NCBI GenBank assembly: GCA_045047305.1
Contig: JASFYO010000070.1
Span: 1-34,127, forward strand
Direction: 5' to 3'
Source: Planctomycetota bacterium
GTDB lineage: Bacteria > Planctomycetota > UBA1135
DNA: 34,127 nt
This document shows positions 3,186 to 27,026 of the stretch, one piece after another. Position numbers and translations under genes: made by a program. Under the pieces are notes generated by a model. That model had not been told where the DNA came from and ran no database searches. It saw only the letters and a list, made by a program, of their open reading frames with translations. Numbering within the stretch: the first letter of the stretch is position 1; each line of letters begins with the position of its first letter.

Positions 3186-4559
3186 TTGAATCTGCGAACC
3201 CATCTCGCCGCACTCTGCGGCACCCTACTTCTTTTTTCTGTCCCAGCTGTAGCCCAGGAAACGGGCTATTCCCTTACCTACGTCATCCAAGCGGATGGCG
3301 CATGGGTGGGGCCGGGTGTTTATCTCGAACCTGCGTTTATTCAGATCTCCGACGGCCGTGTCGCCTGGATCAGTGAGAGCGATCAGCGGCGCGAGGGCAA
3401 AAACATGCTCGGGCGGTCCACTGGCAAGACCAAGATGATCACCGTGAAGGGTATTTTGGCCCCTGGCATGGTCGATGCTTGGAGTACCTTCACGCCGTCC
3501 GACTTCCTGCGGGAACGGAGCCCTGGCTCCACCCGCAACGTGGAAGATTCTTTGCCTTTACAGGTGTCTCTGGAGGATCCTCTACTTTATGCCACGGTGA
3601 TCGCTGCACGCCAAGCTGGAGTTTCTGCCACCTATATGGCTGGTGGTCAACGTGGATTACGGCGCGGTGTTGGTACTGCGGTGGAGTTCACAGCGCTTGA
3701 CCTGCCCTTAAAGGCTGGACATCAGGCTCTCGACTTTGCCGTTGGTTCCGCAGCAGTTCCTGGCTTTGAGCGCACATACCAGTCTGAGGAGTTGTGGGAC
3801 GCCTTTGAGGAAGCGCAATCCTGGCGCGCGTCCTGGGATGATTACGATGAGGATGTAGAAAAGTACGCCGAGAAGCTGGAGAAGTATCAGGAGAAACTCG
3901 AGAAGTACCTCACTGAGAAGAAGGAGTGGGATGAGAAGCAAGAGGCCAAGGGGTCGATGGCTGGCGAAGGCGATAGCGATGAAGCCCCCAAGGCTCCCAA
4001 ACGTCCGAAACCCCCTAAAAAGCCAGAGTCCAATGTCGCCCGCGATCTTTTGCTGGGTGCCATGGATGGAGCCACGCAAGTGCGGGTTGTGGCCGATCGC
4101 GTTGCCGATCTCCGCGCCCTCATCCGCCTCAAGCAGGAGTTCCACCTCGATCTTGTCGTGCTTGGCGGTTACGACGCCGATTTCCTCGCAGAAGAACTGG
4201 CCGCGGCTGAAATCCCAGTGATTCTGCCCGTCGTCCAGGATCATCACCTTGGTGCCAACCCTGAGCGTAGTTTTGCCACGCGCTATCTGGCTCTTCGCGA
4301 GGCCAAGGTCACAGTCGCGATTGCCAGTGGCGGGTCCGATGGCGCACAATTGATGCTCCCCTTACGCGCCGGCGAGATCATTGCCGCAGGTGGTTCCGAA
4401 GAAGATGTTTGGGCTTCCCTCACTACCGTACCGGCAAAGCTGCTTGGCCTTACCCATTACGGCACTCTCCATACCGGGATGAGCGCCACCATGATTTTGT
4501 TTGAAGGCTCCAGTCCCTTCGACGCCTCCGCGCCCTTCAAAGCCCACAAGCCGAAGTAG
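3186..4559 (+). CDS. Secreted amidohydrolase-fold protein 1 (metal ligands degenerate) with charged coiled-coil and Pro/Lys insert
   Basis: GGAG RBS before TTG; signal peptide ending AVA-Q; LAPGMVDAWS in place of PGxIDxHxH; C-terminal LTTVPAKLLGL..GTL..G.SA..ILFEGSSP. Confidence 0.8.
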   Translation: MNLRTHLAALCGTLLLFSVPAVAQETGYSLTYVIQADGAWVGPGVYLEPAFIQISDGRVAWISESDQRREGKNMLGRSTGKTKMITVKGILAPGMVDAWSTFTPSDFLRERSPGSTRNVEDSLPLQVSLEDPLLYATVIAARQAGVSATYMAGGQRGLRRGVGTAVEFTALDLPLKAGHQALDFAVGSAAVPGFERTYQSEELWDAFEEAQSWRASWDDYDEDVEKYAEKLEKYQEKLEKYLTEKKEWDEKQEAKGSMAGEGDSDEAPKAPKRPKPPKKPESNVARDLLLGAMDGATQVRVVADRVADLRALIRLKQEFHLDLVVLGGYDADFLAEELAAAEIPVILPVVQDHHLGANPERSFATRYLALREAKVTVAIASGGSDGAQLMLPLRAGEIIAAGGSEEDVWASLTTVPAKLLGLTHYGTLHTGMSATMILFEGSSPFDASAPFKAHKPK

Positions 4560-4561
4560 AG

Positions 4562-5641
4562 ATGCTCCTTTCCACCACCTTACTTTTGTCTGCGCTTGCT
4601 TCACCCATGGCGCAACAAGATGCGGTCATCTTGCAACCTGATGCCATCGTGGCTGCCGACGGAACCCTTCAAGAGGGTATGTCGGTGGTGATTCGTGATG
4701 GACGCATCGTGGAAGTCACCGCCAAGCCTTCGCTAGCCGGAACTTCGGTGCGTCTAGCTGGGGTCCTTGCGCCAGGCATGATCGACACTTTCAGTGGCCG
4801 CGGCGCTGATCTTTTGCTCACCGAGCAATCGCAAATTACCACGCCCGATTTGCTCGCGGCCGATGGTCTGCAGTTGTCCTCCCCAGTGTGGGAGAACCTG
4901 ATGGCGCGTGGCGTGACTGCCGTGCATATCACCCCCGACGCCACCAACGTGGTCGCTGGTTGGGGTGCGTTGGTTGCAACCGGCGGCTCCGAGCGCTTGA
5001 TTGAATCCAAGACCCTCATGATTGGTTCCTTGGTCCAATCGGCGATTAACGACCGTCGCGTGGGGCCAAGTTCCCTAGCTGGCGCAGTGGAGTTGTTGCA
5101 AGCGGCATTCGCCGATCCCCAAGCCAGGGCTTATCGCAGCAACATGTGGTTCTTTGTCGAGAGTGCTGAAAGTGCACGCGCTGTTGTGGCCCTGAACGCC
5201 GATATCAAGCAAAGCTCGAATCACTCCATCTTGATGGGGGATATTGGCACTTATGGCGGTTCCTTCGCAGGCCAATTGGTGGGCTTGCCCACCATGGGTT
5301 ATGGCGCACTTGCACGCCGCGCAGCGACTTGGAAATTGATGCACAAAGCCGGAACGCGTTTTGCATTCGGCACGCGCGCTGGAAACAGTGAATGGGATTC
5401 CTTGCGCACCTCCGCCATGGCCTTGAGTCGCTTCACCGGCGATGCCTCGGCCGCATGGGCCAGTGTCACCTCGAACCCTGCTGAGATGCTCGGTTTGAGT
5501 TCTGAGGTGGGCAGCATAAAAGTTGGAAATCGCGCCGATTTAGTGCTCTGGACCGGACATCCATTGGATTCCACCGCAACCGTGAGCGCAGTGCTCATCC
5601 ACGGTGAAACCGTTTTCCGGGCAACCGGGGAGGAGAACTAA
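4562..5641 (+). CDS. Secreted amidohydrolase-fold protein 2 (metal ligands degenerate)
   Basis: Signal peptide; VVIRDGRIVEV, LAPGMIDTFS, GVTAV, TSNPAEMLGL..VGSIKVGNRADLVLWTGHPLD. Confidence 0.85.
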   Translation: MLLSTTLLLSALASPMAQQDAVILQPDAIVAADGTLQEGMSVVIRDGRIVEVTAKPSLAGTSVRLAGVLAPGMIDTFSGRGADLLLTEQSQITTPDLLAADGLQLSSPVWENLMARGVTAVHITPDATNVVAGWGALVATGGSERLIESKTLMIGSLVQSAINDRRVGPSSLAGAVELLQAAFADPQARAYRSNMWFFVESAESARAVVALNADIKQSSNHSILMGDIGTYGGSFAGQLVGLPTMGYGALARRAATWKLMHKAGTRFAFGTRAGNSEWDSLRTSAMALSRFTGDASAAWASVTSNPAEMLGLSSEVGSIKVGNRADLVLWTGHPLDSTATVSAVLIHGETVFRATGEEN

Positions 5642-5643
5642 AC

Positions 5644-7095
5644 ATGATCCTGAACACCATTTTGAGTTTGTGCTTTGCGCTACCTCTGGCGCAACAAACC
5701 GAATCACTGAGCCTCTCCGTCGACCGCCTCCATGTAGGCAACGGTGAGGTCCTGGAAAATGCATTGGTTGTCCTGAATCATGGCAAAATCGTTTCCGTGG
5801 TGGCTGGCGGTTCCGCTGCAGGTGCCATCCACATTGACGGCGCTGAGCTTTCTCCAGGCTTAGTCGATGCTTTCTCCTTCATGGGAGTGGGTGGAGCCAC
5901 GATGGAAGAGTCGCGTGAATCGACTCCCTCGATTCATTTGGCAGATACGGTTTCTCTAGACGCACCTTCTTTTGCCTTTGCTTTAGAAGAAGGCGTGACT
6001 TCGGCTTATCTTTCGCCGGATAGCTTTAACGTGATTGGTGGTCTTGGAACCGTGGTGAAAACTGGGGGCGGCGTTGCTGCCAACCTATTCGCCGACGTCG
6101 GAAGTTCAGCCCGCGTGATTAAACGAGAAGGTGCCCTGAAGGTGACCCTCGGCAACGATGCTTCTAATGGCAACTTCACTCCACGTGGGCGCTCCACGCG
6201 CGATTTCCATGCGCGGCGTCCGAACACGCGGATGGGCACAGTGTGGGTGGTCCGCCGCGAGTTTTACCGCGCTAAGGCTTATCAAAAAGCCTTGAAGGAT
6301 GGTGCCAAGGTTTATGACAAGGATCTCGAGGTTCTAGTCAAGGTTCTAGAAGGCGAGATTCCTTTGCGTGTGCAGGCACGTCGCAGTCACGATGTGCAAA
6401 CCGCATTACGTTTGCAGGAAGAGTTTGGCTGGCCCAATCTCATCATTGAGGAAGCTACGGAAGGTCAAGAAGCGGCAGTAGAGCTTGCGGCTGCTGGAGT
6501 TTCGGTTGCAACCGGCCCTGCTTATGATGCCCTTAGTCGTGCCATCGCGCTTGGCCCCACGGTCGAAGAGCTGACCTTGCTCGCTGACCCTCCGGCAGTT
6601 TGTTGTGAAGATCTTCACGATGTCGAAGGCCTGCATAGTGGCGACGAAGACAACGGTGTGATTGCACTGAACCATCAAGCACTTAGCTTTTTGGTTGCAT
6701 TAGCTCCGCGTTATGGTGCAGCCAGTGGCCTCAACGGCGGGCGTTTCAGTGAAGGTGGTTCCGCAACGCCGGCGCTTCCTGCTCTTCTCTTTGATGCAGG
6801 TGTCTCGCTTGCGATGGGGTCTGCGGAAGCGCATGACCAGTCACTCACCGAAGCCAGTCTCATTTATCAGGCACGTAATGCTGTCCACTGGGGCATGCCC
6901 GAGGCGGATGCACTGCAAGCCATCACTTCTCGCGCCGCAGAACTCTGCGGCACCGCCGATCACCTCGGCAAAGTCGCAGTCGGTTTTGATGCCGACCTCG
7001 TGCTGTGGTCGGGCAATCCGCTCGATAGCAGCTCCCGTCCTCTTCTTGTGATTCTCGACGGCCGCATCGCGGTCGATAACCGTCCCCAGCAATAG
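5644..7095 (+). CDS. Secreted amidohydrolase-fold protein 3 (metal ligands degenerate)
   Basis: Signal peptide; LSPGLVDAFS, EGVTSAYLSP..NVIGG, ALKVTLG, PNTRMG, GFDADLVLWSGNPLD. Confidence 0.88.
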   Translation: MILNTILSLCFALPLAQQTESLSLSVDRLHVGNGEVLENALVVLNHGKIVSVVAGGSAAGAIHIDGAELSPGLVDAFSFMGVGGATMEESRESTPSIHLADTVSLDAPSFAFALEEGVTSAYLSPDSFNVIGGLGTVVKTGGGVAANLFADVGSSARVIKREGALKVTLGNDASNGNFTPRGRSTRDFHARRPNTRMGTVWVVRREFYRAKAYQKALKDGAKVYDKDLEVLVKVLEGEIPLRVQARRSHDVQTALRLQEEFGWPNLIIEEATEGQEAAVELAAAGVSVATGPAYDALSRAIALGPTVEELTLLADPPAVCCEDLHDVEGLHSGDEDNGVIALNHQALSFLVALAPRYGAASGLNGGRFSEGGSATPALPALLFDAGVSLAMGSAEAHDQSLTEASLIYQARNAVHWGMPEADALQAITSRAAELCGTADHLGKVAVGFDADLVLWSGNPLDSSSRPLLVILDGRIAVDNRPQQ

Positions 7096-7101
7096 TCAGG
7101 C

Positions 7102-8451
7102 ATGCGTAACGCAACCCTCTTTCTAGCTTCCGTCCTTCTTTCTGCACCTGCGTTCGCGCAAGGTGGTTCCATTGCTGTACGCGGTGGGAAAATCATGAAG
7201 GCCGACGGCTCGGTCATCGATGGCGGCACTATGGTCATCGAAAACGGTCGTATCTCCAGTCTCGGTGGTGCCGATCTCGAAGTCCCCTTCGATGTCATTC
7301 TCCACGAGTACCCCGATGCGGTCATCTTCCCCGGTTTCTACGAAGCGCACAGCTCTTCGGGTATGGACCGCGCTAACGAAAACGTTGCGGTTGCTCCTTT
7401 CCTGAATGTCAAAGATTCCATCGACCCAGTTTCCTTCTACTTTGAAGATGAACTGCGTGGCGGCACGGTTGCGATTGGCATCATGCCGGGTAACGCCACT
7501 GTCATCGGTGGGCACGGTCGTGTGGTTGCGCCAAGCGGAATGACCATCGAACAAATGACCTTGGATACAGCCATGGGCATGAAGATTGCAATTGGCCCCA
7601 AGCGCGGATGGAGTCGCAGCACCCAACTTGGTGAGCTGCGCGAAACATTTTCCAAATTGGATCGCGATTTGCGCAAACTCGGACTGAAATTGCAGGAAGC
7701 AGGCAAGCAGAAGGAAGACTTTGCCTCGGTGACGGAGGAGGAAGAGGAAGAGCTTTCGGATGGCGATGCTTGGGATAACGCGGGTGGTTTGCTGCGTTTC
7801 GGCGACGATTTCCCAGGCAAAGATTTGATTTCCGAAGAAGATCTCAATGATGGGCAGCGCGGATTAGTGAATATCCTTAATGGCGATGAGCGGTTGTGGA
7901 TTTGGGCACCAAGTGCAAGCGACGTAGTCACCGCACAAAACTGGCTAACGGAATACGGCATGCTCGATAATGCAGTGCTCGTGGTCACTTCGGCAGCTTG
8001 GAAGGCTTCAGCACAACTTGCTGAAATGGGCCGCCCCGTTGTGATCAGTGGCGACCTTTGGCATGTCGAACGGGATCCGGTGACCTACAAAGAGATCCGT
8101 ACTTTCGCACCGGCTAAGTTTGAGGAAGCAGGCATTGCCTTCGCCATCAGCTCGGTCGAAGGGCGCATGGGGCCAGACCGCTTGTCCTACCAAGCTGCCA
8201 TGTGCATCCGCGAAGGAGTTTCGCGTCAGGTCGCATTGGCAGCCGTCACCACCAACCCAGCTAAGTTCTGGGGCTTGGAAGATGACCTCGGCGATTTCAA
8301 GCAAGGCGCCGACGGAACCTTTGTCGTGTTCGACGGCGATCCACTCGCTATCAGCACTCATGTCCTGGAAGTTTGGATTCGCGGCGTGAAGAGTTACGAC
8401 CGCAGTGAAGACGCACGTCTGAAGCGCCTCGAGGAGGGTCGCATCAAGTGA
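7102..8451 (+). CDS. Secreted amidohydrolase-fold protein 4 (partial metal site)
   Basis: Signal peptide ending AFA-Q; IENGRI, IFPGFYEAHS (one His), PGNATVIGG, MKIAIG, TTNPAKFWGL, FDGDPL. Confidence 0.88.
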   Translation: MRNATLFLASVLLSAPAFAQGGSIAVRGGKIMKADGSVIDGGTMVIENGRISSLGGADLEVPFDVILHEYPDAVIFPGFYEAHSSSGMDRANENVAVAPFLNVKDSIDPVSFYFEDELRGGTVAIGIMPGNATVIGGHGRVVAPSGMTIEQMTLDTAMGMKIAIGPKRGWSRSTQLGELRETFSKLDRDLRKLGLKLQEAGKQKEDFASVTEEEEEELSDGDAWDNAGGLLRFGDDFPGKDLISEEDLNDGQRGLVNILNGDERLWIWAPSASDVVTAQNWLTEYGMLDNAVLVVTSAAWKASAQLAEMGRPVVISGDLWHVERDPVTYKEIRTFAPAKFEEAGIAFAISSVEGRMGPDRLSYQAAMCIREGVSRQVALAAVTTNPAKFWGLEDDLGDFKQGADGTFVVFDGDPLAISTHVLEVWIRGVKSYDRSEDARLKRLEEGRIK

Positions 8452-11336
8452 AGCTCAATACTCTCATCTTTTCCGCGATTGGAGGTGTCTGCCTGTTGGC
8501 GGCCGCGCTCCAAGGCGATGATCGCCAAGAGCCGGCGGCAGCAAATGCGCTGGTTTTAAATGGTGAAGGCCCTGCAAAAGCGTATCACGCTGCGGTGATT
8601 CACACTGCGGGTGCCGCTGGCGTTATCAAAGACGGCTACCTTGTGGTGCAAGATGGCAAGGTCGCGGGCGTGGTAGCGTCGGCAGATGATTTGCCACCCA
8701 TGCTAGCGATGGTCGAACTTGGCCAGGCACACATCATTCCCGGTTTGGTTGCAGCAGATACCACCGTCACTGGGGTTTCTGGGCAAGCCGATCGGACTAT
8801 GGCGGCGCACAACTTAGCGTCGGATTCCTTTGATCCTTGGATGGATACGACCAAGGTCCTAGAGCGCGGCATTACTACCTACTACCTGTCGCCCGATCGT
8901 TCACGTTTGATTGGCGGACGCGGCGCTGTGGTGAAAGCTGCGGGCAAAAACTCCATGTTGCAAACGCACGGCGATTTGCGCATCAACCTCACCAGTGCTG
9001 CGTGGAATCCTCCAGATTACTTCCGGCCGCCGATTCCACCAACGGCAGAGAACCCAATCCTTCCAGCGCAAGCACAAGCGCCAAACTCACGCCCCGGTGC
9101 GTTGTTGGCCTTGCGCCAGACTTATGCAGCGGCTCTTGCGGGTGCAGATACTGACCCCAACCTGATTGGTTTGCAAGAGTACTTAAGCTCCGATGCTGTG
9201 TTGCGTTTGGTCGTCAACACCGCCGATGAGGCGGAGGCTGCGCTCGCTCTGGCCAAGGAATGGGGCCGACGTCCTGTTCTGGCTGGCCTAAGCCAAGCGA
9301 ATGCGGCACAAATGAAGGCTGCGTTGGAGCAGCAGAGGGCAACCTTGTTGTTTGAAGTTCCGCTGTTTATCACCATGCCGGAACTCGACGCCAATTGGCA
9401 GTTCCCAGAGGCGGATTTGCTCGCTGAGATGAGTCCATTGGCACCAGTCGCACTGGAGGCAGGCCCTTATGGGCGTTGGACTTGGTTGCTCGAAGCTGCT
9501 GCTTCCGCCACCAGTTATGGCTTAAGTGAGAGCGATGCGCTTCGCGGAATCACCACCGTGCCGGCCGACATTCTCGGTGTTGGTCAGCGCGTCGGCCGCC
9601 TGGAGAAAGGCTTTGATGCCGACTTTGTTGTGCTCGATGGAGGCCCGCTGGATGCGGCTGCCAGCGTGCAAAAGGTTTACGTGGATGGCAGTAAAGTTTG
9701 GAGCCGCAAAGGAGTGAAAGCTCTGGTTAGCGATGCCGTTGTCATTCGCGCTGGAACTTTATGGACTGGCGATGGCGCGCCAATTGAAGGCGGGGTAGAA
9801 GTCCTGCTTGAAGATGGGCTCATCGTGGCAGCCGGGCGAACGGTGCCGCATCCTGCTGGTGCACGCATTGTGGATGCTGGAGCCGATGCTCACATCACAC
9901 CTGGCTTCATTGACGCCCGTGGATTTATTGGCACCAATGGAGCGCGGCGGATTAACGATCGTGTCGATATCGGACGTCTTGCTGACGGCTCCTTTTTCTC
10001 CGACCGTTGGCGTCCTGTAGCGCAATCTGGCATCACCTCGGTGGTGATGGGCCCGCGCAATTTGTCAACCACCGGCACTCGCGCTGCGGTAGTCAAGACC
10101 GCCGCAGGGGCTGAGTCCGGTTCGCTAGAAGATCGCTTTGTCGTATTCTTCGATGCGCGTTCTTCCGACCACGCAGCCAGCCGCAAGGCCTTGGCCGGTC
10201 AACTTAAGAAAGGGAAAGCTTATTTTGATAAGTGGGAAGCCTTCCGCAAAGAACGCGCGGAGTGGGAGGTCGAGAATGGAAAGAAGACTTCCGATGCACG
10301 TGCGGAAAAGGAAAAGGATCTGCGCATTCGGCTCGCTCAAGGGTCTGCCCCTAAGGTGGAAGAAGTTGTAGTGGAAGAAGTGGAAGAAGTGGAGGTTGTC
10401 GAAGAGGAAGCCAAGCCTGTGGACCCTGTTAACGGGATGTGGGAAGGCCTCTTAGAGCATGAGATGCTTGGGGACGAGGGCATCGAAATCCAAGCCCGCT
10501 TACATCATGAAGGTAAACAGTTAACCGGTATATTTGGAACGCCGGATGCGCCAGACGATACCTTGGAGCTGGAAGGCTCTTTCGAAAACAATGCCATTCA
10601 CTTTGAGTTCCCAACCCAGGTAGGGAATCTCATGATTGACGGCAGCATCGATGCCCCAGATTCCATGTCGGTCAAGATCGAGCTCGCAGGTTTCGGCTCG
10701 GCTGAATTTGTCATGGCTCGCACTGAGGTCGAGGAAGAAGGTGCGGCTCCGATTGCCAAAAAGAAGACGAAGACAGACGATGGTCCACAAGCTCCAGACA
10801 TGAATTGGGGGTTGGAAGGCTCACGCGCAATGTTTGAAGGACGCGCCCGTGCCGTGGTTGCTGCTTCGCGTCGTGACGAAATCGAGAGCGTGTTGGCTCT
10901 CTTTGATGAATACCAACTTCCGGTGCAACTCATGTATGCCGAAGAAGCACTCGACATGGCCGACGAACTCCGAGCACGTGGAGTCGGCATTGTGGTTTCA
11001 CCGAATGTTACCAGCCGACGAGAAAACGTGGATTATGTGGCAGCAGCGGAACTGCATGCCGCTGGAATCCCGATTGCCTTCCAGTCGGACCGTACCCAAG
11101 GCGCACGTTTCTTACCGCAGCTCCTGACCATGGCAACTCGTTACGGTTTGGGTGCAGAGCAAGCACTTGCTGGCCTCACTTCTTCCACCGCAGACATGCT
11201 CGGCATTGCCGATCGTGTCGGCCGAGTGAAAGCTGGACTCGATGGCGACATCGTTATTTTTCAAGGGCCTCCATTTGATCTGCGATCACGGGTGACCCAC
11301 GTCTTTGTCAACGGCCGCGAGGTCCCACAACCGTGA
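8448..11336 (+). CDS. Secreted double amidohydrolase-fold protein 5 (two degenerate domains; extra beta-rich domain inserted in the second)
   Basis: Two copies of the fold: IIPGLVAADT...GFDADFVVLDGGPLD and ITPGFIDARG...GLDGDIVIFQGPPFD. GTGA overlap with the previous stop. Confidence 0.88.
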   Translation: MKLNTLIFSAIGGVCLLAAALQGDDRQEPAAANALVLNGEGPAKAYHAAVIHTAGAAGVIKDGYLVVQDGKVAGVVASADDLPPMLAMVELGQAHIIPGLVAADTTVTGVSGQADRTMAAHNLASDSFDPWMDTTKVLERGITTYYLSPDRSRLIGGRGAVVKAAGKNSMLQTHGDLRINLTSAAWNPPDYFRPPIPPTAENPILPAQAQAPNSRPGALLALRQTYAAALAGADTDPNLIGLQEYLSSDAVLRLVVNTADEAEAALALAKEWGRRPVLAGLSQANAAQMKAALEQQRATLLFEVPLFITMPELDANWQFPEADLLAEMSPLAPVALEAGPYGRWTWLLEAAASATSYGLSESDALRGITTVPADILGVGQRVGRLEKGFDADFVVLDGGPLDAAASVQKVYVDGSKVWSRKGVKALVSDAVVIRAGTLWTGDGAPIEGGVEVLLEDGLIVAAGRTVPHPAGARIVDAGADAHITPGFIDARGFIGTNGARRINDRVDIGRLADGSFFSDRWRPVAQSGITSVVMGPRNLSTTGTRAAVVKTAAGAESGSLEDRFVVFFDARSSDHAASRKALAGQLKKGKAYFDKWEAFRKERAEWEVENGKKTSDARAEKEKDLRIRLAQGSAPKVEEVVVEEVEEVEVVEEEAKPVDPVNGMWEGLLEHEMLGDEGIEIQARLHHEGKQLTGIFGTPDAPDDTLELEGSFENNAIHFEFPTQVGNLMIDGSIDAPDSMSVKIELAGFGSAEFVMARTEVEEEGAAPIAKKKTKTDDGPQAPDMNWGLEGSRAMFEGRARAVVAASRRDEIESVLALFDEYQLPVQLMYAEEALDMADELRARGVGIVVSPNVTSRRENVDYVAAAELHAAGIPIAFQSDRTQGARFLPQLLTMATRYGLGAEQALAGLTSSTADMLGIADRVGRVKAGLDGDIVIFQGPPFDLRSRVTHVFVNGREVPQP

Positions 11337-12538
11337 TTGTTAGCGCACTACTTACCTTTTCTCTGACCGCAATGGCGCAAGTGCCTGTGGCGGAAGATGT
11401 CATTATTTTGCGCGCCGCCAAGGTTTACACCGCGGGGGAGCAAGGCATGATTAACAATGGCTTGGTCGTCATGCAAGGCGAGAAATTGCTGTGGGTTGGC
11501 CCCGAATCTGACCTGCAGGTCGATGCGCGTATCAGGGTGCAGGACCTCGGTGATGTTTGGTTAGTTCCAGGACTTATCGAACCGCACAATCACGTTGCTG
11601 GTTCCTTGCGCGACTTGAATGACACCGTGTTCCTGACTAATCCGGAACTTCATACCTACGAAGTCCTGGAACCGCAAAACGAGTTTCTCAAGGATGCGGT
11701 CGCTGGTGGTGTTACCACGGCACTGTTCATTCCGGGCTCCGGTTCTAACATGGGTGGCTTTGGCATGCTGGTGAAAACTTCTGGCAAAACCCCGGATGAA
11801 ATGGTGGTGCGCAGCCCCGGATCGTTGAAGATTGCACAAGCGGGTAACCCGGAACGTTATTCCTGGGGTGTGCGTCGTGCGATGATGAACTGGAATACGC
11901 GCGACACCTTGGAGAAGGGGTTGGCCTGGGCCGAAGCTTATGAGGCAGGCGAAGCCGAATTCGATCCTCGCTACCAATATTTCGTCGGGCTGCGCAACGG
12001 CACCATTCCAGTCAGTGTGCACACCCAGATCTATCAAGTGGTGATGCAAACGCTCACCATGCAAGTGCGGGACCTCGGCTTGAAGTCCTTCATCGATCAC
12101 GGCACTTTTGATGGCTACAAAAATGCCCCGCTGGCAGCAGAGCTGGGTGTCCCGGTCATGAACGGCCCGCGTCAGTTTTGGTTTGACCGCTCCACTTCCA
12201 TGATCATGGGGTGTGCTGCTGGTTGGGCTAGCGAGGAGGGCATCATCCTTGGCTACAACACCGATTCTCCGGTGCTGCCTCAAGAGGAGCTTCCCTTTCA
12301 AGCCGCAATGGGTGTACGTCTCGGCGCTGGAACCAATGAGTCCGCGCTCAAAGGCATGACCGCACACGCGGCTACGGCTTTGTTGATGGAAGATATCGCC
12401 GGCCGCTTAGAGAAAGGTCTCGATGCCGACGTCGTGGTGTGGACCGGGGATCCCGTCGACCCACGTAGTTCCGTTCTCAAAGTTTGGGTGCGCGGCGAGA
12501 AAGTTTACGACATCGATGAGGAGAAGCGCCGCTTCTAA
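11333..12538 (+). CDS. Secreted amidohydrolase family protein 6 (complete binuclear metal site)
   Basis: PGLIEPHNH (HxH), SLKIAQ (Lys), VSVHTQ, FIDHGT, YNTDSP; GLDADVVVWTGDP. Confidence 0.92.
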   Translation: MIVSALLTFSLTAMAQVPVAEDVIILRAAKVYTAGEQGMINNGLVVMQGEKLLWVGPESDLQVDARIRVQDLGDVWLVPGLIEPHNHVAGSLRDLNDTVFLTNPELHTYEVLEPQNEFLKDAVAGGVTTALFIPGSGSNMGGFGMLVKTSGKTPDEMVVRSPGSLKIAQAGNPERYSWGVRRAMMNWNTRDTLEKGLAWAEAYEAGEAEFDPRYQYFVGLRNGTIPVSVHTQIYQVVMQTLTMQVRDLGLKSFIDHGTFDGYKNAPLAAELGVPVMNGPRQFWFDRSTSMIMGCAAGWASEEGIILGYNTDSPVLPQEELPFQAAMGVRLGAGTNESALKGMTAHAATALLMEDIAGRLEKGLDADVVVWTGDPVDPRSSVLKVWVRGEKVYDIDEEKRRF

Positions 12539-13734
12539 TGCTCGGATTGCTATTGCTTCTACCGCTGAGTCAGGCGGCTGCCCAACCGGAACCCGGCATG
12601 GTTTTGGATGTGGGCGTAGCCCTGACTATGGAGGAGCGTCGGGTGGTGCACAATGCACGCATCCTGATTGGAAGTGATGGACGCATTCAAGAGGTGGGGC
12701 GACAAGCAGATATCGCGCGACCTGATGGTTGGGAATACCTGAACTATCCCAATTCGTTCGCTTGGCCAGGCGGGATTGATTTGCATTCCCATACGCATAC
12801 TGGTGGCTGGGAAGACATCAACGACATGGTGCATCCAGACAATCCAGAGCTCCGCACCCTGGATACCATCGTGCCGAATAATATCCTGCATCGCATGGGC
12901 CGTGCTGGGGGAGTCACTTTGGTGAATGCGATTCCCGGATCGGGCACCAATATTTCCGGCGCTGGTACTTTGGTAAAACTCAAGAACAGCGTTTCGGTGG
13001 AAGATGTGGTCTTCCGCTACCCCGGTTCGGTGAAAGTGGCGCAAGGCTACAACCCAGAACGCAGCGATGACCTCGGCTCCACCCGTATGGGCATGTGGTG
13101 GATGTTGCGCTGGTACCTAGACCGCGCCAAAGAAGTGGCCGCTGCCGACACTCTGGCGGAAAATCCAGATGTCGCCAGTCTCGCCGGTGTTTTTCAACAG
13201 CGTTATCCCTTTTTGGTCCACACTGCTGGCGCCCGCGATACTTATGGCACGGTGCGGATGTTTCAACTTGAAGCAGGAGTTCCAGTGATTGTGAGTCACG
13301 GTTCCTTCAACGGATTTATGGTCGGTGAGGCCATTGCCAAGGTTCATGCTTCGCTCAACTTAGGCCCGCGTAACTTCGATTACACGGTGAGCCGTAATAG
13401 TCAATTCCGTGGACTCGTGGAGGCTTTCGAAAGCGCAGGTAATACCGATATCTCGGTTCAAACCGACGCCGGAGTCATCCCACAAGAAGAGTTTATTTAC
13501 CAGGCCACTTTGGCCGAACGCCTGGGCTGTTCCACTTGGTTAGCCCTGGAATCCATCAACGTGAACCCCGCTCGACAGATTCTGGTAGAAGACCAGGTCG
13601 GTCGTCTCTTGCCCGGACTACAGGCCGACATTGTGGTCAGTACTGGGCAGCCGTTGGACCCGCGCGCGGCGGTGCAGCTCGTCATCATTGAAGGCGAAGT
13701 TGCATACGACCAAAGTACGGGCCAGCTTTACTGA
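12538..13734 (+). CDS. Secreted amidohydrolase family protein 7 (complete binuclear metal site)
   Basis: PGGIDLHSH, SVKVAQ, FLVHTA, IVSHGS, VQTDAG; TAATG overlap with the previous stop; close paralogue of protein 6. Confidence 0.92.
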   Translation: MLGLLLLLPLSQAAAQPEPGMVLDVGVALTMEERRVVHNARILIGSDGRIQEVGRQADIARPDGWEYLNYPNSFAWPGGIDLHSHTHTGGWEDINDMVHPDNPELRTLDTIVPNNILHRMGRAGGVTLVNAIPGSGTNISGAGTLVKLKNSVSVEDVVFRYPGSVKVAQGYNPERSDDLGSTRMGMWWMLRWYLDRAKEVAAADTLAENPDVASLAGVFQQRYPFLVHTAGARDTYGTVRMFQLEAGVPVIVSHGSFNGFMVGEAIAKVHASLNLGPRNFDYTVSRNSQFRGLVEAFESAGNTDISVQTDAGVIPQEEFIYQATLAERLGCSTWLALESINVNPARQILVEDQVGRLLPGLQADIVVSTGQPLDPRAAVQLVIIEGEVAYDQSTGQLY

Positions 13735-13751
13735 ATCCATTCCCAACCAAG

Positions 13752-15101
13752 ATGCTTGCATCCTTAATCCTAACTTTTGCGCTACCCGCTGCGGTGCCGC
13801 AAGAAACGCCGCGTGACCCAGTGGGCCGCGCAGTCATTTATCGTTTCGATACTGTCGAGACCATGGATGGCGAATCTCTTTCCAATGTCACCATGTTGGT
13901 TCGTGATGGAATCATTGAACGCATGGGGCAAGCGGTAGTCATACCCGAGCATGCAGAGGTTCACGATTACCGTGGCAGTGGCAAAGTTGCGATGCCGCCT
14001 TTCGCCTTAAGCCACGCTAACTTTTTGGTTAGCGATCGTCGTGGTAATGGGCGCAATACGCGTTACACCGCGGTTGATTCCATGTGGTTAGACGCAGACT
14101 GGGAGCAAGATTTGCTTGAAGAGGGCGTGCTCTTGGTAGGGGTGGACCCACCTGGGCGCGGATTGCCCGGACGCACATCGGTGCTGTTGGTTGATGGGCA
14201 AACAGGAGTGCCGCATGCCCTTGTTTCGGATCTTCATCTCAAGGTGATGGTTTCCACTTCATCGACCGCCAAGCGTTTGGTGCGCGATGGATTCAAGGCC
14301 GCCGATAAGGCAATCAAAGACGAAGACAAAGCCCGCGCGGAATGGAAGAAGGCGCGTGAAGAGTGGGAAGCTAAGCAGAAAGAGGAAGCCGAGGCTAAGG
14401 AAAAGGAGAAGGCTGACAAGGACGACAAAGGTGAAGCTGCAACCGCTGCTCAAGATGAGGGCGATGATAAGAAGGAAGACAAGGGGCCTCCCGATGAATT
14501 TGAGATTCCGAAAATCGATCCCAATGTAGAGCCATTGGTGGAGTGGATTCGTCAGGAGCGGGTCGGTCAGGTTTGGCTAGGCACGGCTTCGGATTGGCTA
14601 CATTGGCAGGACTTGTTACGTGAGCGCGAGTTGTCTTACGAGATCGTGCTGCGGCATGGCACCACGCAAAATTTGTTTGAAGTGGCCGACGCCATCGCCA
14701 GCACCGAGTTGCGTGTCGATGTTCCGGCACGGATTAGCTTTTTGCCTTACACTCGCACCCGCGCCAACCTTCCTGCCGATCTCGTCGCAGCGGGCGTGAC
14801 TAAGCTCATCCTTTCGCCGTCGAGTGATTCTTTGAGTGGTTTGCGCAACTATCGTTTAGCCGTTTCCCAAGTAGTTGCTGAAGGCTTGGATCGCGATGTC
14901 GCATTGCGCGGCATGACGGTTGAACCTGCGCTTTCGATGGGGCAAGAAGAATTGCTTGGTGCACTCAAAGTTGGCGCACCCGCCACCTTTGTCATCTGGA
15001 ATGGCGACCCACTCGATCCAATGAGTGAAGCCGAGTTTGTGCTTTCGGAAGGAGAAGTGGTTTATGACCGCGCCAAAGCCGAAGCGGAGGATCAGTCATG
15101 A
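13752..15101 (+). CDS. Secreted amidohydrolase-fold protein 8 (degenerate) with long charged insert
   Basis: Signal peptide; LVRDGII, AMPPFALSHAN, MTVEPALSMG..LGALKVGAPATFVIWNGDPLD. Confidence 0.82.
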   Translation: MLASLILTFALPAAVPQETPRDPVGRAVIYRFDTVETMDGESLSNVTMLVRDGIIERMGQAVVIPEHAEVHDYRGSGKVAMPPFALSHANFLVSDRRGNGRNTRYTAVDSMWLDADWEQDLLEEGVLLVGVDPPGRGLPGRTSVLLVDGQTGVPHALVSDLHLKVMVSTSSTAKRLVRDGFKAADKAIKDEDKARAEWKKAREEWEAKQKEEAEAKEKEKADKDDKGEAATAAQDEGDDKKEDKGPPDEFEIPKIDPNVEPLVEWIRQERVGQVWLGTASDWLHWQDLLRERELSYEIVLRHGTTQNLFEVADAIASTELRVDVPARISFLPYTRTRANLPADLVAAGVTKLILSPSSDSLSGLRNYRLAVSQVVAEGLDRDVALRGMTVEPALSMGQEELLGALKVGAPATFVIWNGDPLDPMSEAEFVLSEGEVVYDRAKAEAEDQS

Positions 15102-16624
15102 AATCCATGTGGAAGCTAGCCATTCTTTCTCTTTGCACTTTGGGTGCACAAGGAACACTCTTGGCCGCAGCGCCGATGGCGCAGGAGCCTCCTCCTGAAG
15201 TGGTCGATACGCCACCGCCACCTCCGCCCGAAATTGTGGAAGAGCCGCAGGAGCCTACAGAAGAAGTCATCGAAGAGGTGGTGGAAGATTCCACTGAGGA
15301 TGCGGTCGAAGAGGAAGCGGTTGAGGAGGAAATAGTGGAAGAGGAGCCGGTGGACCCGGAGCTCTTCATCGATCCCGACAGCCCGTACCTTTACATCCAT
15401 GGTGCCGACATTCACACCGTGACCAACGGTGTGATTCATAAGGGTGATCTCTTGTGCAAAGATGGCCGCGTACTCAAGTTAGGCGAAAGTCTGCGTAAGC
15501 CGCATGGTGCGCGCCGTATCGACGCCACTGGTATGCAGATTTATCCCGGGCTGATTGCTGTGGATAGTTCTGGCGTGGTAAGTGGTCGCGGTCTTTCAAT
15601 CCGCGATTCCTATGACCCGTATGCACTCAACATTGACCTCGGACTTTCCGGTGGGCTTACTTTGGTTCAGTCTGGCGGTGCATTAGCCAAGTTGAAGCAC
15701 GGAACTCTAGATGGCATCCTTTTGGGGGAAACCCATTGGGTCAATATGAGTTACTCGACCACCTCTCCAAGCGGACGTCGTAAGTTGCGCGAAGAATTTG
15801 GAAAGGTTCGTGATTACTTGCGTGAGCAACGTCGTTGGGCGTTGGATAAGGAGCTTGGCGAAGATGTAGGTGAGGAGCCACAAGCGAAAGGATTTAAAGC
15901 AGATTACTTAGCCTTGTTGAAAGGCGAAGCTGTCGCGCGTTTCAGTGCGAACTCGCTGAAGGATTTACTTGCCACCTGTGACCTGCTGGAGGAATACCCC
16001 ATGCAGTCGGTCATCATTGGAGGTCGTGAAGCATGGGCCTGCGCCGGACGTCTTGGTCGTGTCGGTGCACAACTGGTGATTACCCCACGCGCAAAAAGTT
16101 GGGCCGATGACAGCCTTAACCGCCCGAGTGGTTGGTCGATTGAGAATGCGCGCATCCTGTGGGAGCATGGCGTGCAGTTTGCCATCCTTCCGGCGCAACG
16201 TTTCATCTCCACCGGTGGTATTGCAGGGCGTGACTTACTTACCTTGCCGATGGAAGCAGCCTTCGCCATTCGGGGCGGCTTGCCGCAAAACGTCGCGCTG
16301 CGTGCGATTACTTTGGATGCGGCTAAACTTCTTGGCGTCGACCACCGTTTGGGATCCATCGAAATCGGAAAAGACGCAGATTTTATTCTGTGCGATGGCG
16401 ACGTCTTCCACTACCGCACTTTTGTGCAATGGGCTGTGGTTGATGGTGCTGTGGTGTACGACAAGATGAAGGCACCTTACTTTGCTCACATTCGCCCGCG
16501 GGAAGCGACTTCCTTGGATGAGGTCATCGAGGAAATCAAAGATGCAGTCGATGCTGAAGCCGAAATCATCGAAGAATCTTCGTCGGAAGTTGCTTCTGAC
16601 ATCGACGCGCCGGAAGAAGATTAA
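15098..16624 (+). CDS. Secreted amidohydrolase-fold protein 9 (degenerate) with Pro/Glu-rich N-terminal extension
   Basis: Signal peptide, PPPPPP/EE tract, IHTVTNGVI, IDATGMQIYPGLIAVDS, ITLDAAKLLGVDHRLGSIEIGKDADF; ATGA overlap. Confidence 0.88.
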   Translation: MKSMWKLAILSLCTLGAQGTLLAAAPMAQEPPPEVVDTPPPPPPEIVEEPQEPTEEVIEEVVEDSTEDAVEEEAVEEEIVEEEPVDPELFIDPDSPYLYIHGADIHTVTNGVIHKGDLLCKDGRVLKLGESLRKPHGARRIDATGMQIYPGLIAVDSSGVVSGRGLSIRDSYDPYALNIDLGLSGGLTLVQSGGALAKLKHGTLDGILLGETHWVNMSYSTTSPSGRRKLREEFGKVRDYLREQRRWALDKELGEDVGEEPQAKGFKADYLALLKGEAVARFSANSLKDLLATCDLLEEYPMQSVIIGGREAWACAGRLGRVGAQLVITPRAKSWADDSLNRPSGWSIENARILWEHGVQFAILPAQRFISTGGIAGRDLLTLPMEAAFAIRGGLPQNVALRAITLDAAKLLGVDHRLGSIEIGKDADFILCDGDVFHYRTFVQWAVVDGAVVYDKMKAPYFAHIRPREATSLDEVIEEIKDAVDAEAEIIEESSSEVASDIDAPEED

Positions 16625-16652
16625 TCATCCCCAAAACTGCCTTGGCAGAATC

Positions 16653-16686
16653 AAGAGGGCGGGCCATAATCGGCACGCCCTCTTTG
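16653..16686 (+). terminator. Probable rho-independent terminator of the amidohydrolase operon
   Basis: Inverted repeat AAGAGGGCG-G-GCC...GGC-A-CGCCCTCTT followed by a short T-rich stretch, ~30 nt after the last stop. Confidence 0.6.
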
Positions 16687-18305: not shown

Positions 18306-19226
18306 ATGCGTAAGCTTCTTTTTCTTCCGGTTTTAGCCCTTGCCGCCTGCGGTCACGCAGATGTCAGGGTGGAGGAGGGGCAAGCCGTCGCCGAAATCAC
18401 GGTGACCAGTAATTTTCCAGCTCCTGTTGCCTTAGAGGTCGAGTCGCTGCCTCGCTTGCTCAAAATAAGCCCGTCGATTTACTCTGGGGCTCAACCCCAC
18501 ACTGCCGCCTCCTTTGCAGCGCTCAGGGAGTTAGGTATTAAGACCATTGTTTCGGTCGACGCCGCGCCTCCCAATCTCGAGGCCGCTGGCAAGGAAGGCC
18601 TGCGCTATCTGCACGTACCGATTGGTTACGACGGCATTTCTCAAGCAGCAGGCGACTCTTATTTCCGCCTGATGGGGGAAGTGGATTTGCCGGTTTACTT
18701 TCATTGCCATCATGGTCGGCAACGTGGGCCTGCCGCCGCCGCGATTGCTTTACGAGCTTCCACCCAATGCGATGCAGCCACGGCCTTGGCTGTCCTAGAA
18801 GCAGCTGGTACCAGTCATAAATATGAAGGCCTTTGGCGCGATGTGGAAGCATGGATGGCGCCGCGTCCGGATAAACAACTTCCGGAGCTAGTGTCCTTGC
18901 AGAAGTTGAATCCATTCGTGGTGAAGATGGCCGAGATTGATCGCACTTGGGACCGCATCAAGCAAATCCGCGAGCAGGATTGGAAATCGGTTTCGTTCAT
19001 TCCTGAAACTCAACTTCTACTGGAGCAACTCGAAGAGTGTGCTGGCCACATTCCAGCGGAGCACATCCAGGACAAAAAACTACATCGGGGGTTGGAGGAT
19101 GTAGTTCGATTTGCCGAAAGCTTTCACCGTGCCGCCGAGGCGTTAGATAAAGACTTGCTTGAAGAAGGCTACCGGGATCTCCGCGCGAGCTGTAACGATT
19201 GCCACGCGGATTACCGGAATCATTAA
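18306..19226 (+). CDS. Lipoprotein with protein-tyrosine-phosphatase-like/DUF442 domain (CX5R) fused to a C-terminal cytochrome c'-like domain
   Basis: Lipobox LALAA-C; IYSGAQP, LGIKTIVSVD, FHCHHGRQRG; helical C-terminal half ending SCNDCHADYR (CxxCH). Confidence 0.82.
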   Translation: MRKLLFLPVLALAACGHADVRVEEGQAVAEITVTSNFPAPVALEVESLPRLLKISPSIYSGAQPHTAASFAALRELGIKTIVSVDAAPPNLEAAGKEGLRYLHVPIGYDGISQAAGDSYFRLMGEVDLPVYFHCHHGRQRGPAAAAIALRASTQCDAATALAVLEAAGTSHKYEGLWRDVEAWMAPRPDKQLPELVSLQKLNPFVVKMAEIDRTWDRIKQIREQDWKSVSFIPETQLLLEQLEECAGHIPAEHIQDKKLHRGLEDVVRFAESFHRAAEALDKDLLEEGYRDLRASCNDCHADYRNH

Positions 19227-20193: not shown

Positions 20194-21189
20194 GTGCTCC
20201 TTTTTGTGACATCACCCTCCCTCCCCTCTGACTCCTATTCGCGACGTAAGTTCCTGCAAGGGATGGCTTCTGTGACCGGGGTTGCCGTCGTAAGTGGCCA
20301 GCAGACTGGACTTTCGGCATTACACGCCGCTGTCTTCCCTGCAGCTCCTGCCTACACCCTATGGGCGGTCGAAGCGATTCAAGTGCAGGAGGTTTTCCCC
20401 AACGGTTCTGCAGTAGACTTTTTCCGTTATCAACCCTTGCAAGGTTCAGCCACTCGCGGAAATCTGCCGTATTTCGAAGCCACGGAAGGCGCAATCATCA
20501 TCGTTGGAGTCAGGAACTCCCTTTCTATTGCGATTCGCCCGGAAATTGTAGGGGTAGCGGTTGGCCCGCTGATCGCTCCTGGTCAACAGGATTGGTTCCG
20601 CTTCATCATGCCAGCAGCTGGTAGTTACCAACTGAGCCAAGCGGAATACCGCGAAGTCTCTGGTCCACTCGGTCTGGCTGGGGTCATGGTTTCGCGGCCT
20701 TCAAGCGGTGCGCAAGAGCTTTGGAATGGGGGACCTTCCTTTGACCGGGAGTATGTCCTGCATTACCAAGATTCCGATGAGCGTTGGAATCAGGCAGCAG
20801 CGTTAGGTCACTTGCCGAACCTTGGGCTGTACGAGCCGAACTACTTCACGATTAACGGATTGGCCTATCCAAATACTTCGGCCGACCCAGATTCTCACGT
20901 TGCTTGCCTGGTCGGTGAGCGAGTTTTGATCCGACTCTCGAACTCTGGGCGTATACGTCAGAGCATTCACTTCCATGGCTATCATGTGGATATTGCGGCA
21001 CAGAACAACGTGCCAAACATGATTCTTCCGCCTAAAGACACGGTAGAAATTGCGGCTGGTGGAACTACGGATCTAATCTTGACGGTGAATCAAGCAGGCA
21101 TTTTCCCGGTGCACTCACACTCTTTAACCGCAGTGACCTCCAACGGGATCTACCCATACGGTCAACGGACCTTCATTGAAGCTACTTAG
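20194..21189 (+). CDS. Tat-exported two-cupredoxin-domain multicopper oxidase-like protein A (HxH pairs only in domain 2, no type-1 Cys)
   Basis: SRRKFL Tat motif; FTINGLAYP, VLIRLSN, SIHFHG, KDTVEI..G, FPVHSH. True start may be GTG 20206. Confidence 0.85.
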   Translation: MLLFVTSPSLPSDSYSRRKFLQGMASVTGVAVVSGQQTGLSALHAAVFPAAPAYTLWAVEAIQVQEVFPNGSAVDFFRYQPLQGSATRGNLPYFEATEGAIIIVGVRNSLSIAIRPEIVGVAVGPLIAPGQQDWFRFIMPAAGSYQLSQAEYREVSGPLGLAGVMVSRPSSGAQELWNGGPSFDREYVLHYQDSDERWNQAAALGHLPNLGLYEPNYFTINGLAYPNTSADPDSHVACLVGERVLIRLSNSGRIRQSIHFHGYHVDIAAQNNVPNMILPPKDTVEIAAGGTTDLILTVNQAGIFPVHSHSLTAVTSNGIYPYGQRTFIEAT

Positions 21190-21198
21190 AGATTGATT

Positions 21199-26621: not shown

Positions 26622-27026
26622 ATGACTGAAACAGCGCAACTCATCGAGGCCGCACGTGCCGCGGCTCAGCAATCCTATTGCCCATACAGCAAGTTCGCGG
26701 TTGGGGCTGCGATTCTATGGAGTGATGGAGAGTTAAGCGTTGGGGTGAATGTCGAAAATGCGAGTTACCCCTTATCGGTTTGTGCCGAGCGCAGTGCCGT
26801 GAGTGAAGGTGTGCGGCGGGGGCAACGTCGGATACATAAGGTTGCGGTTTGGGCCGACGTCGACGACGTGGTGGCGCCATGCGGTGCGTGTCGTCAGGTG
26901 CTCTATGAGTTTTGCTCTGGAGATGCTGCAAGTGTGGAAGTCATCCTTGCCGGTCGCACTGCTAAGCGCACGACGACCTTAGATGTACTCTTGCCAGACG
27001 CCTTCGGTCCGCAATCTCTGCACTAA
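26622..27026 (+). CDS. cdd: Cytidine deaminase (homotetrameric type)
   Basis: YCPYSKFAVGAA, GVNVENASY, CAERSA, PCGACRQVLYEF, LLPDAF; GAGG RBS. Confidence 0.95.
   Translation: MTETAQLIEAARAAAQQSYCPYSKFAVGAAILWSDGELSVGVNVENASYPLSVCAERSAVSEGVRRGQRRIHKVAVWADVDDVVAPCGACRQVLYEFCSGDAASVEVILAGRTAKRTTTLDVLLPDAFGPQSLH

Follow-up and report, generated by a model that had tools for sequence, protein, structure and literature searches.

What would lead a bacterium to keep nine adjacent genes for a single enzyme fold, most of them lacking the residues that would make their products enzymes? This question is posed by a run of amidohydrolase-like genes in a 34,127-nucleotide stretch of DNA from a member of the Planctomycetota, the whole of which is referred to here as the window. 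Catalytic binuclear members of the amidohydrolase family contain a metal center with a carbamylated lysine, the ligands of which form an H-x-H, Lys, His, His, Asp motif. A literature search found no description of such a nine-gene amidohydrolase system. A preliminary description of the locus had proposed that the genes encode stoichiometric subunits of one secreted hetero-oligomer, and the evidence bearing on this proposal is presented below.

Operon Anatomy

The operon spans positions 3186–16624 as nine open reading frames on the + strand, and its gene coordinates and intergenic gaps (2, 2, 6, −4, −4, −1, 17, and −4 nt) are exactly those of the preliminary description. The nine genes carry ten amidohydrolase-fold domains, each assigned to a slot. 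The first four, g1 (slot p1, 3186–4559, 457 aa), g2 (slot p2, 4562–5641, 359 aa), g3 (slot p3, 5644–7095, 483 aa), and g4 (slot p4, 7102–8451, 449 aa), encode pseudo-amidohydrolases; g1 has a signal-peptide-like N-terminus and a charged insert, while g2 to g4 were assigned by Pfam and a metal-ligand check. The two-domain gene g5 (8448–11336, 962 aa; Pfam, AF2, and Foldseek) encodes the fused pseudo-amidohydrolase domains p5a (about 8448–9722) and p5b (about 9723–11336). An insert inside p5b (10170–10730) is predicted to comprise a 56-residue helix, an acidic linker, and an eight-stranded all-β domain, which matched no named family above 0.9 (best 0.83). The active slot is present as two copies, g6 (11333–12538, 401 aa; six ligands and an AF2 model) and g7 (12538–13734, 398 aa; six ligands), and the run ends with the pseudo-amidohydrolase genes g8 (slot p8, 13752–15101, 449 aa), with a charged insert, and g9 (slot p9, 15098–16624, 508 aa), with an acidic Pro/Glu N-terminal arm.

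Short spacing also characterizes related loci, in which 357 of the 396 gaps between genes do not exceed 20 nt. A promoter scan of the operon gave matches at chance level. The hairpin thought to close the operon is real (16653–16684, + strand; stem of 9 bp plus 3 bp, z −3.16), but its U-tail is poor and it is absent from the terminator scan list, so that it is best described as a possible terminator.

The paralogs are strongly diverged, as had been noted. Local identities between domains are 21–51% (partial alignments), g6 and g7 are 33% identical over 375 residues, and a search of the operon for a long near-identical DNA repeat found none. The low identity and the lack of such a repeat rule out a recent amplification as well as an assembly artifact, as does the slot tree described below.

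Fold and Putative Export Signals

Pfam Amidohydro_1/3 (PF01979/PF07969) matches eight of the nine genes at E ≤ 0.01, g1 being the one without a match; of the curated Pfam cut-offs, g7 reaches one and g8 neither. HHalign comparison with the active-slot profile gave a probability of 100 for all eight other slots, including slot 1. The AF2 model of g6 (pLDDT 92.5, pTM 0.92) has PDB 3OOQ as its closest fold (TM 0.85, next 0.61), which is also the best match of the g5 model (pLDDT 89.4; TM 0.81 by target length), although the packing of p5a against p5b is uncertain because the pTM of that model is only 0.66. The operon domains thus have the amidohydrolase superfamily fold, a TIM barrel plus a β-sandwich, and the earlier count of ten such domains is borne out by Pfam, HHalign, and, for g5 and g6, AF2 with Foldseek.

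Hydrophobic N-termini, previously read as signal peptides, are found in all nine genes by a Kyte-Doolittle heuristic. The best nine-residue mean is 1.84–2.73 in these genes vs. 0.73–1.51 in seven neighboring genes, and in related loci the same heuristic picks out a hydrophobic N-terminus in 339 of the 396 internal genes. The mature parts contain no 19-residue window above 1.43.

Two Intact Metal Sites and Eight Pseudo-Enzymes

Checked against an alignment with 3OOQ, all six ligands are kept among the ten domains only by g6 (H85-H87-K166-H230-H256-D311) and g7 (a complete HHKHHD set), and the other eight domains keep 0–3 of them. The claim that every gene carries amidohydrolase signatures therefore stands for the fold, but the catalytic signature is confined to g6 and g7. 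The ligand sites of g1 read W/T/D/V/G/G, and none of 86 slot p1 members keeps more than one; g3 retains the Lys alone, g4 the first His and the Lys, and g8 matches at three of six sites. In p3, p5a, and p9, one or two sites lie in alignment gaps, which leaves the verdict intact because H-x-H is already absent there. All six ligands are present in 157 of 158 active-slot proteins vs. 3 of 753 proteins of the other eight slots. These three are all members of p2 (3/90, in other genomes), the sole degenerate slot with a full set anywhere, and in some lineages the metal site of p2 or p5b is still partly or wholly preserved. Such loss in eight domains rules out ten active enzymes of one pathway. Pseudogene decay of the dead domains is ruled out by dN/dS values of 0.03–0.17 for every gene (three genome pairs); the eight degenerate domains are pseudo-enzymes under purifying selection.

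Conservation of Slot Order

Gene order does not vary freely but is fixed in the loci examined: across Planctomycetota it reads p1-p2-p3-p4-p5a/b-[active]-p8-p9, except for a split in one family. This order is followed by all 30 complete loci of a first set, from which three loci (L005, L021, and L040) were excluded as broken or fragmentary. A selection of 20 loci representing other families in the phylum follows it without exception. A further 80 loci, 54 of them complete and some representing repeat genomes of the first set, contain no violation. In the exceptional family, f26, the operon is divided into a p1–p5 locus and an active-p8-p9 locus, which indicates that co-transcription is not required. 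Domains p5a and p5b are fused wherever the gene is whole, and other slot fusions join 1+2+3 (L049), 1+2 (L050 and L056), and 8+9 (L051). Each of these rare fusions is seen in one or two assemblies.

The paralogs group by position and not by genome. Among 333 domains, the nine slot groups are all monophyletic (support 0.72–1.0), and HMMs trained on the class place 120 of 120 genes, taken from 15 loci outside it, in their syntenic slot. In phylum-wide trees, slots p1 and p5a are not intact; when a plain alignment is used, members also drop out of p2, p5b, and p8.

Variation in copy number is confined to the active gene, of which there are one to four, giving nine to 12 domains. Outside the class of the window, one active gene (nine domains) is the state in 19 of 20 loci and 44 of 47 genomes; some genomes within the class have 11–12 domains. 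Separate g6-like and g7-like clades span several families, and the two-active state is therefore old within the class. Active copies are lost singly, while no loss of an internal pseudo-slot was seen in the mapped loci.

The active clade was found in 61 of 201 sampled genomes of the phylum. Sixty of these also gave a slot-4 match; in the remaining genome slot 4 is present, cut at a contig edge. A slot-4 profile scan at 1e-80 (56/201) was set aside for these counts from other searches, as it missed five positives and counted one stand-alone paralog (G292). In three of the five missed genomes that were rechecked, the slot-4 match is split in two and falls below the cut-off. The slot-4 alignment is too variable for a locus scan. 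The flanking genes acs, lpxA-like, bcp, trpD-like, and topA are common to the family of the window and partly to its class. Outside the class, the largest shared cluster in a search for conserved partner genes was an ORF that we read from its sequence as sigma-factor-like (8 loci).

Relationship to Known Proteins

The closest sequence match is the Thermotoga maritima protein 3OOQ (profile E 1.1e-82, next 3.7e-23), and the wide margin in both sequence and structure places the operon proteins in a 3OOQ-like subfamily. The 3OOQ assembly is listed with dihedral D5 symmetry and an oligomeric count of 10 (supplement of PMC9556563). This annotation comes from a crystal of a protein that is 27% identical and has no stated function; the CombFold supplement files examined contain no 3OOQ row. 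In the alignment, the active slot and 3OOQ share the H-x-H, K, H, H, D ligands, and the ten chains of 3OOQ correspond in number to the ten domains here. Unlike 3OOQ, a structural-genomics entry with one gene, ten identical chains, and intact sites, the operon has its ten domains, eight of them dead, spread over nine genes with signal-peptide-like N-termini and a fixed slot order.

The same genomes also encode two- and three-domain proteins of this subfamily that combine dead and active domains, e.g., G000:C3:153767-158023 (1419 aa), so that the statement that tandem pairs are common holds for these genomes, to which its support is limited. The triads are dead-active-dead chains with HHKHHD in the middle domain (11/11) and, like the operon genes with inserts, have an extra segment, located after the first domain. 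They and the pairs differ from the operon in having 2–3 vs. 9–12 domains and in forming clades separate from its slots. An origin of the operon by triplication of a triad (3 × 3) was considered and has no support in the trees, the deep nodes of which are unresolved.

The CDD label cd01309 denotes metal-dependent hydrolase subgroup C. Prolidase-like carboxypeptidases and ochratoxin hydrolases (Cc2672 3MTW, 3BE7, 8IHQ) and imidazolonepropionase HutI share the fold and are the origin of the “imidazolonepropionase-like” database labels, but these single-gene enzymes are far more distant (TM about 0.6). The best score to HutI TIGR01224 is 45.8 bits (g6) vs. an equivalog cut-off of 298, and g6 and g5 score 58.1 and 63.7 bits against the Caulobacter-type Xaa-Pro dipeptidase model NF051886, with a cut-off of 500. 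The CRMPs (CRMP1–5) are likewise amidohydrolase-fold paralogs for which the available text of PMC4051505 reports no detected DHPase activity and a preference for hetero-tetramers. They are animal, cytosolic, tetrameric proteins of the dihydropyrimidinase branch without an operon, and CRMP chains match at E about 3e-10 or weaker vs. 1e-82 for 3OOQ, which places the operon proteins outside that family.

In the 20S proteasome, CCT/TRiC, the RNA exosome, and plastid ClpP/ClpR, a homo-oligomer gave rise to fixed-position paralogs, several or most of which are catalytically dead. These rings have unrelated folds, are mostly eukaryotic, archaeal, or organellar, and are not exported; they may serve as an analogy for how the operon product works, with no membership implied.

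A Proposed Hetero-Oligomeric Enzyme and Its Alternatives

Nine genes in fixed order, encoding ten domains of which two have metal residues, point to a probable exported ten-part enzyme complex, most of whose parts would be inactive. The operon probably encodes a single exported hetero-oligomeric metallo-amidohydrolase, a D5-derived ten-domain assembly of about 4,400 residues with eight dead scaffold domains and g6 and g7 as its catalytic subunits. All chains would be exported by Sec to the periplasm, translational coupling would yield near-equal amounts, and the chains would join into a single particle. The eight ligand-less, fixed-position domains would form the scaffold, g6 and g7, as interchangeable subunits, would fill two catalytic places, and the binuclear center would hydrolyze an amide or peptide bond, our best guess for the substrate being small peptides or N-acyl amides. 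The dead subunits and the helical and β inserts may have a role in gating, in positioning, or in capturing the substrate. The neighbor-slot fusions and the D5 decamer as closest structure fit a hetero-oligomer, and the proposal of stoichiometric subunits gains from these as well as from fixed order and positional grouping, so that two of the three tests set to refute it did not do so; it needs amending in that active genes number one to four and eight domains are incomplete enzymes, and the complex itself is deduced. A predicted complex of mature g6 and g8, each with its own alignment, scored 0.00 in a run in which the controls did not fold, and it counts neither way.

Outside the class of the window nearly all genomes have nine domains, and some genomes in the class have 11–12. 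For a decamer, one must further assume that the catalytic subunit is doubled or swapped: a lone active gene would supply the same chain twice, and genomes with three or four would exchange alternatives. A less likely reading is one complex or a few sub-complexes of another size. This might be a nine-slot particle in which eight subunits are dead and one, the catalytic subunit, is exchangeable; it might also be a doubled nonamer, or p1–p5 and active-p8-p9 might form modules of their own. Nine domains are the commonest architecture, the f26 split lies between p5 and the active gene, and no observed fusion spans this boundary. The three-domain relatives suggest multiples of three; since ten places are not evenly divisible among such chains, the oligomer number can change within the subfamily. 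Against this stand the ten chains of the nearest solved structure, the age of the two-active state, and the trees, which do not support a triplicated three-domain unit.

It is unlikely that the genes encode independent periplasmic proteins under shared regulation, with one enzyme and eight non-catalytic binding or carrier proteins for different ligands. Purifying selection on all slots and the ability of the operon to split would suit such proteins, and in p4 the invariant N92, E93, and D105 near the retained His and Lys might form a pocket. However, single gains and losses would be expected, yet internal pseudo-slots are retained in the mapped loci; in most slots the residues of the former pocket are variable; and no transporter or receptor was found as a conserved neighbor. 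It is very improbable that the product is chiefly a structural polymer or scaffold of the envelope in which catalysis is secondary. The degeneracy of eight of ten domains, the long charged inserts of several, and the CRMP precedent could be cited for this reading, but identity across families is highest in the active slot (41%), which keeps its ligands almost invariably and is accompanied by slot 4 in each of the 61 genomes having the active clade.

Returning to the ten-domain enzyme, a more specific version can be offered tentatively, with somewhat less than even confidence: a periplasmic enzyme cage in which a D5 homo-decamer became, by diversification in the manner of the proteasome or CCT, a fully asymmetric hetero-decamer with eight dead subunits that are obligate and two catalytic cartridges that can be exchanged, its genes arranged in assembly order and near-core in much of Planctomycetota, with stages of catalytic decay visible in p2 and p5b.

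Significance and Distribution

Rings with a different paralog at every position, most of them catalytically dead, are textbook material for eukaryotic machines; to our knowledge, they have rarely been described in bacteria. If the proposed complex exists, it would offer a compact, clonable, exported bacterial model for the transition from homo-oligomer to obligate hetero-oligomer and for the retention of dead subunits. Variants that differ in active-gene number (one to four), have neighboring slots fused or the operon split, or keep a partial or complete metal site in p2 or p5b would act as a natural experiment. The operon also marks genes that are near-core in a little-known planctomycete class, with g9 matched in 147 of 151 class genomes (a single match in 145, two partial matches in 2). 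Databases label its products as many unrelated “imidazolonepropionase-like” enzymes, and most such labels sit on proteins without a metal site.

The operon may extend beyond Planctomycetota, as two slot-4 homologs carry the database label Armatimonadota and one Myxococcota. Seventeen metagenome loci were found with one such homolog; a flanking coaX points to no clear phylum, and the loci keep the slot layout where they are long enough.

Operon Anatomy

Re-calling of the open reading frames reproduced the nine genes (g1–g9; 3186..16624, plus strand), their coordinates and the eight intergenic gaps given in the preliminary description. The amidohydrolase fold that it assigned to each gene also held, since Pfam finds the domain in eight of the nine, twice in g5, and the slot of g1, without a Pfam match, aligns with the profile of the active slot (g6 and g7) at an HHalign probability of 100; the catalytic signature, however, is confined to g6 and g7. 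No NCBIfam model came close to its cut-off against any of the nine. Long near-identical repeats are absent, in agreement with the earlier denial of a recent amplification. By a heuristic measure, the N-terminus of every gene in the operon exceeds those of seven neighbouring genes in hydrophobicity. Of 200 shuffled sequences, 199 fold less well than the hairpin 3′ of g9, but a terminator scan did not reveal a clear intrinsic terminator there. A sigma-70-like site (10-of-12; 16642–16670, plus strand) overlaps this hairpin just upstream of an AhpC/Bcp gene at 16693, the regional number of such sites being at chance level.

Gene Order, Copy Number and Distribution

Slots p1–p4 correspond to g1–g4, p5a and p5b to the two domains of g5, and p8 and p9 to g8 and g9. 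Thirty complete loci of the taxonomic order, the window included, share the arrangement p1, p2, p3, p4, p5a/b, active, p8, p9. The active position holds one gene in six of them, two in 22 and three in two; a 5′-incomplete locus has four, and L005, L021 and L040, broken or fragmentary, were omitted from this set. A second set, which overlaps the first and contains kin that are not independent, comprised the best 80 related loci of about 760 motif-holding stretches; these 80 are labelled Planctomycetota or only “bacterium”, among them many Phycisphaerae and “Planctomycetes bacterium UBA1135” at 69% identity. These 80 loci show zero violations of gene order, and the 54 complete ones hold one, two, three or four active ORFs in 29, 20, 3 and 2 cases, respectively, two of the three counted as “3” representing a second active copy in broken pieces. 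The synteny check suggested earlier thus found a constant order in the complete loci examined; L041 consists of p1–p5 alone because family f26, in which the operon is split in two, places active-p8-p9 at another site. Gene number, also expected to be conserved, is constant in the mapped loci for the dead slots, whose domains in the window lack the full set of metal ligands (H-x-H, K, H, H, D), but varies from one to four for the active genes.

Matches to g9 (E ≤ 1e-30) occur in 147 of 151 genomes of the class, and in one genome of family f4 neither g6 nor slot 4 found a match. Genome-wide counts across the phylum rest on two slots: the active clade is present in 61 of 201 genomes and slot 4 in 60 of those 61, the last having slot 4 truncated where its contig begins. 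Outside the class 46 genomes are positive, and 20 of them were examined; all 20 keep the order, and 19 have a single active gene. Beyond the class, no transporter or pathway enzyme was found to accompany the operon. L045, L046, L048, L054, L055, L059, L060 and L115 each have a sigma-factor-like ORF close by, upstream in four and downstream in four. Genes in two pieces, through sequencing error or decay, include p8 of L005 and the second active gene of L023/L073 and L104. Genome G194 possibly has two operon copies, with active-clade genes on contigs C339 and C63, each near a slot-4-like match. Metagenome contigs L161–L177 have the same slot layout with one to three active genes, and a near slot-4 protein is labelled Armatimonadota; the range of the system may extend beyond Planctomycetota.

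Orthology by Slot

The paralogues cluster by slot, as a hetero-oligomer of fixed positions had been expected to show. When 333 domains from the taxonomic order were placed in one tree, the nine slot groups each formed a single clade (support 0.72 for p1, 0.95 for p5b and 0.98–1.0 for the rest), and HMMs trained only on the class assigned all of the 120 genes taken from 15 eight-gene loci outside it to their syntenic slots, five split or fused loci being excluded. The active clade contains g6-like and g7-like branches, and a sole copy can be either. In a phylum-wide tree from a plain alignment, p1 is scattered and members are lost from p2, p5a, p5b and p8; with a profile-mapped alignment, which is biased toward slot grouping, p1 and p5a are still not intact. 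These trees do not resolve the branching order among slots.

Active and Dead Domains

The preliminary description overlooked that, in the window, the six metal-site residues are complete only in g6 (H85, H87, K166, H230, H256 and D311) and g7. Once domains under 300 residues or truncated at a contig end were left out, the de-duplicated set from loci L001–L140 showed all six ligands in 157 of 158 active-slot proteins, the sole exception (a2 of L023) missing its N-terminal part, and in 3 of 753 domains of the other eight slots. Each of the three is a p2 (L034, L037 and L053) and, judging from its residues, may still be catalytic; one further p2 retains five ligands and three p5b domains retain four. 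Six metagenome loci that represent a more distant lineage often have H-x-H-K still in place in p2 and p5b with the later ligands gone, plausibly an intermediate stage. H-x-H-K is likewise often retained in p2 and p5b of L161–L177. The dead genes are not decaying: three genome pairs give a dN/dS of 0.03–0.17 for each of the nine genes, though dS approaches saturation in the one pair to which the window belongs.

Proposed Assembly and Alternatives

The nearest solved relative, both by sequence and by fold, is a Thermotoga maritima amidohydrolase (PDB 3OOQ), to which the g6 model aligns with a TM of 0.85 (runner-up, 0.61) and the predicted model of a dead g5 domain with 0.81. 3OOQ is listed with dihedral D5 symmetry and an oligomeric count of 10 (PMC9556563, supplementary file 3), and its dihedral assembly is also given by a preprint (10.64898/2026.08.06.736029). 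The domains encoded by the window operon also number ten.

Several features of the genes point to a physical complex. By automatic start calls, 240 of 396 intergenic gaps are ≤0 nt, and 357 do not exceed 20 nt. In every complete copy of the gene, p5a and p5b form one fused chain; slots 1-2-3 form a single chain in L049, 1-2 are fused in L050 and L056, and 8-9 in L051. No internal dead slot is absent from any mapped locus, while active copies go missing singly.

The operon is real and conserved, and apparently uncharacterised: full-text searches spanning few subscription journals and no supplements returned neither a description of it nor a function for 3OOQ. Dead paralogues occur in hetero-oligomers such as the proteasome, CCT, the exosome and ClpP/R. 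The amidohydrolase fold and the dead-paralogue principle are already known, the CRMPs being described as dead paralogues in hetero-oligomers within the amidohydrolase superfamily (PMC4051505).

We consider it probable that the operon encodes an exported particle, built like the 3OOQ decamer, in which eight places are dead and two catalytic. All chains would be made in near-equal amounts, exported and joined as one particle, in which eight distinct dead subunits would set geometry and access, and two places would receive catalytic chains, g6 and g7 in the window. Genomes with one active gene would fill both places with the same chain, and those with three or four would swap cartridges of differing specificity. 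The six-ligand set, associated in this family with binuclear amide hydrolysis, suggests that the catalytic chains would perform that reaction; the substrate may be a peptide or N-acyl amide, a guess by analogy with the nearest characterised relatives, which are carboxypeptidases and dipeptidases.

The main weaknesses of the ten-place reading are that nine domains are commoner, that the operon can be split and that the same genomes hold three-domain relatives, which show that membership of the subfamily does not require ten. A complex of another size is the leading alternative, though an unlikely one. Independent proteins forming no complex are more doubtful still. A structural polymer, set beside the intact metal sites of the active slot, appears very improbable.

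Smaller Relatives and Other Genes of the Window

Locus L160 (G000:C3:153767-158023, minus strand) encodes a 1419-aa three-domain relative arranged as dead, intact (HHKHHD) and dead. Other genomes of the order have comparable triads as well as two-gene pairs, with two to three domains in contrast to the ten of the window operon; the intact-looking member of the pairs has H-x-H, and His replaces Lys/Asp at some aligned sites.

Downstream of the operon, a position kept within the family of the window, the gene at 18306–19226 (plus strand) encodes a product with a lipoprotein-like N-terminus, a C-terminal CxxCH and weak phosphatase-like and cytochrome c′ matches. From sequence reading, two adjoining small genes with His-rich motifs (20194–22101, plus strand) resemble the multicopper-oxidase type, the first with a twin-arginine-like leader. 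The same kind of reading places an MBOAT/AlgI-like membrane acyltransferase gene (minus strand) and a convergent 371-aa gene (plus strand) at 27023–29466, where the former overlaps the end of the latter by about 110 nt.
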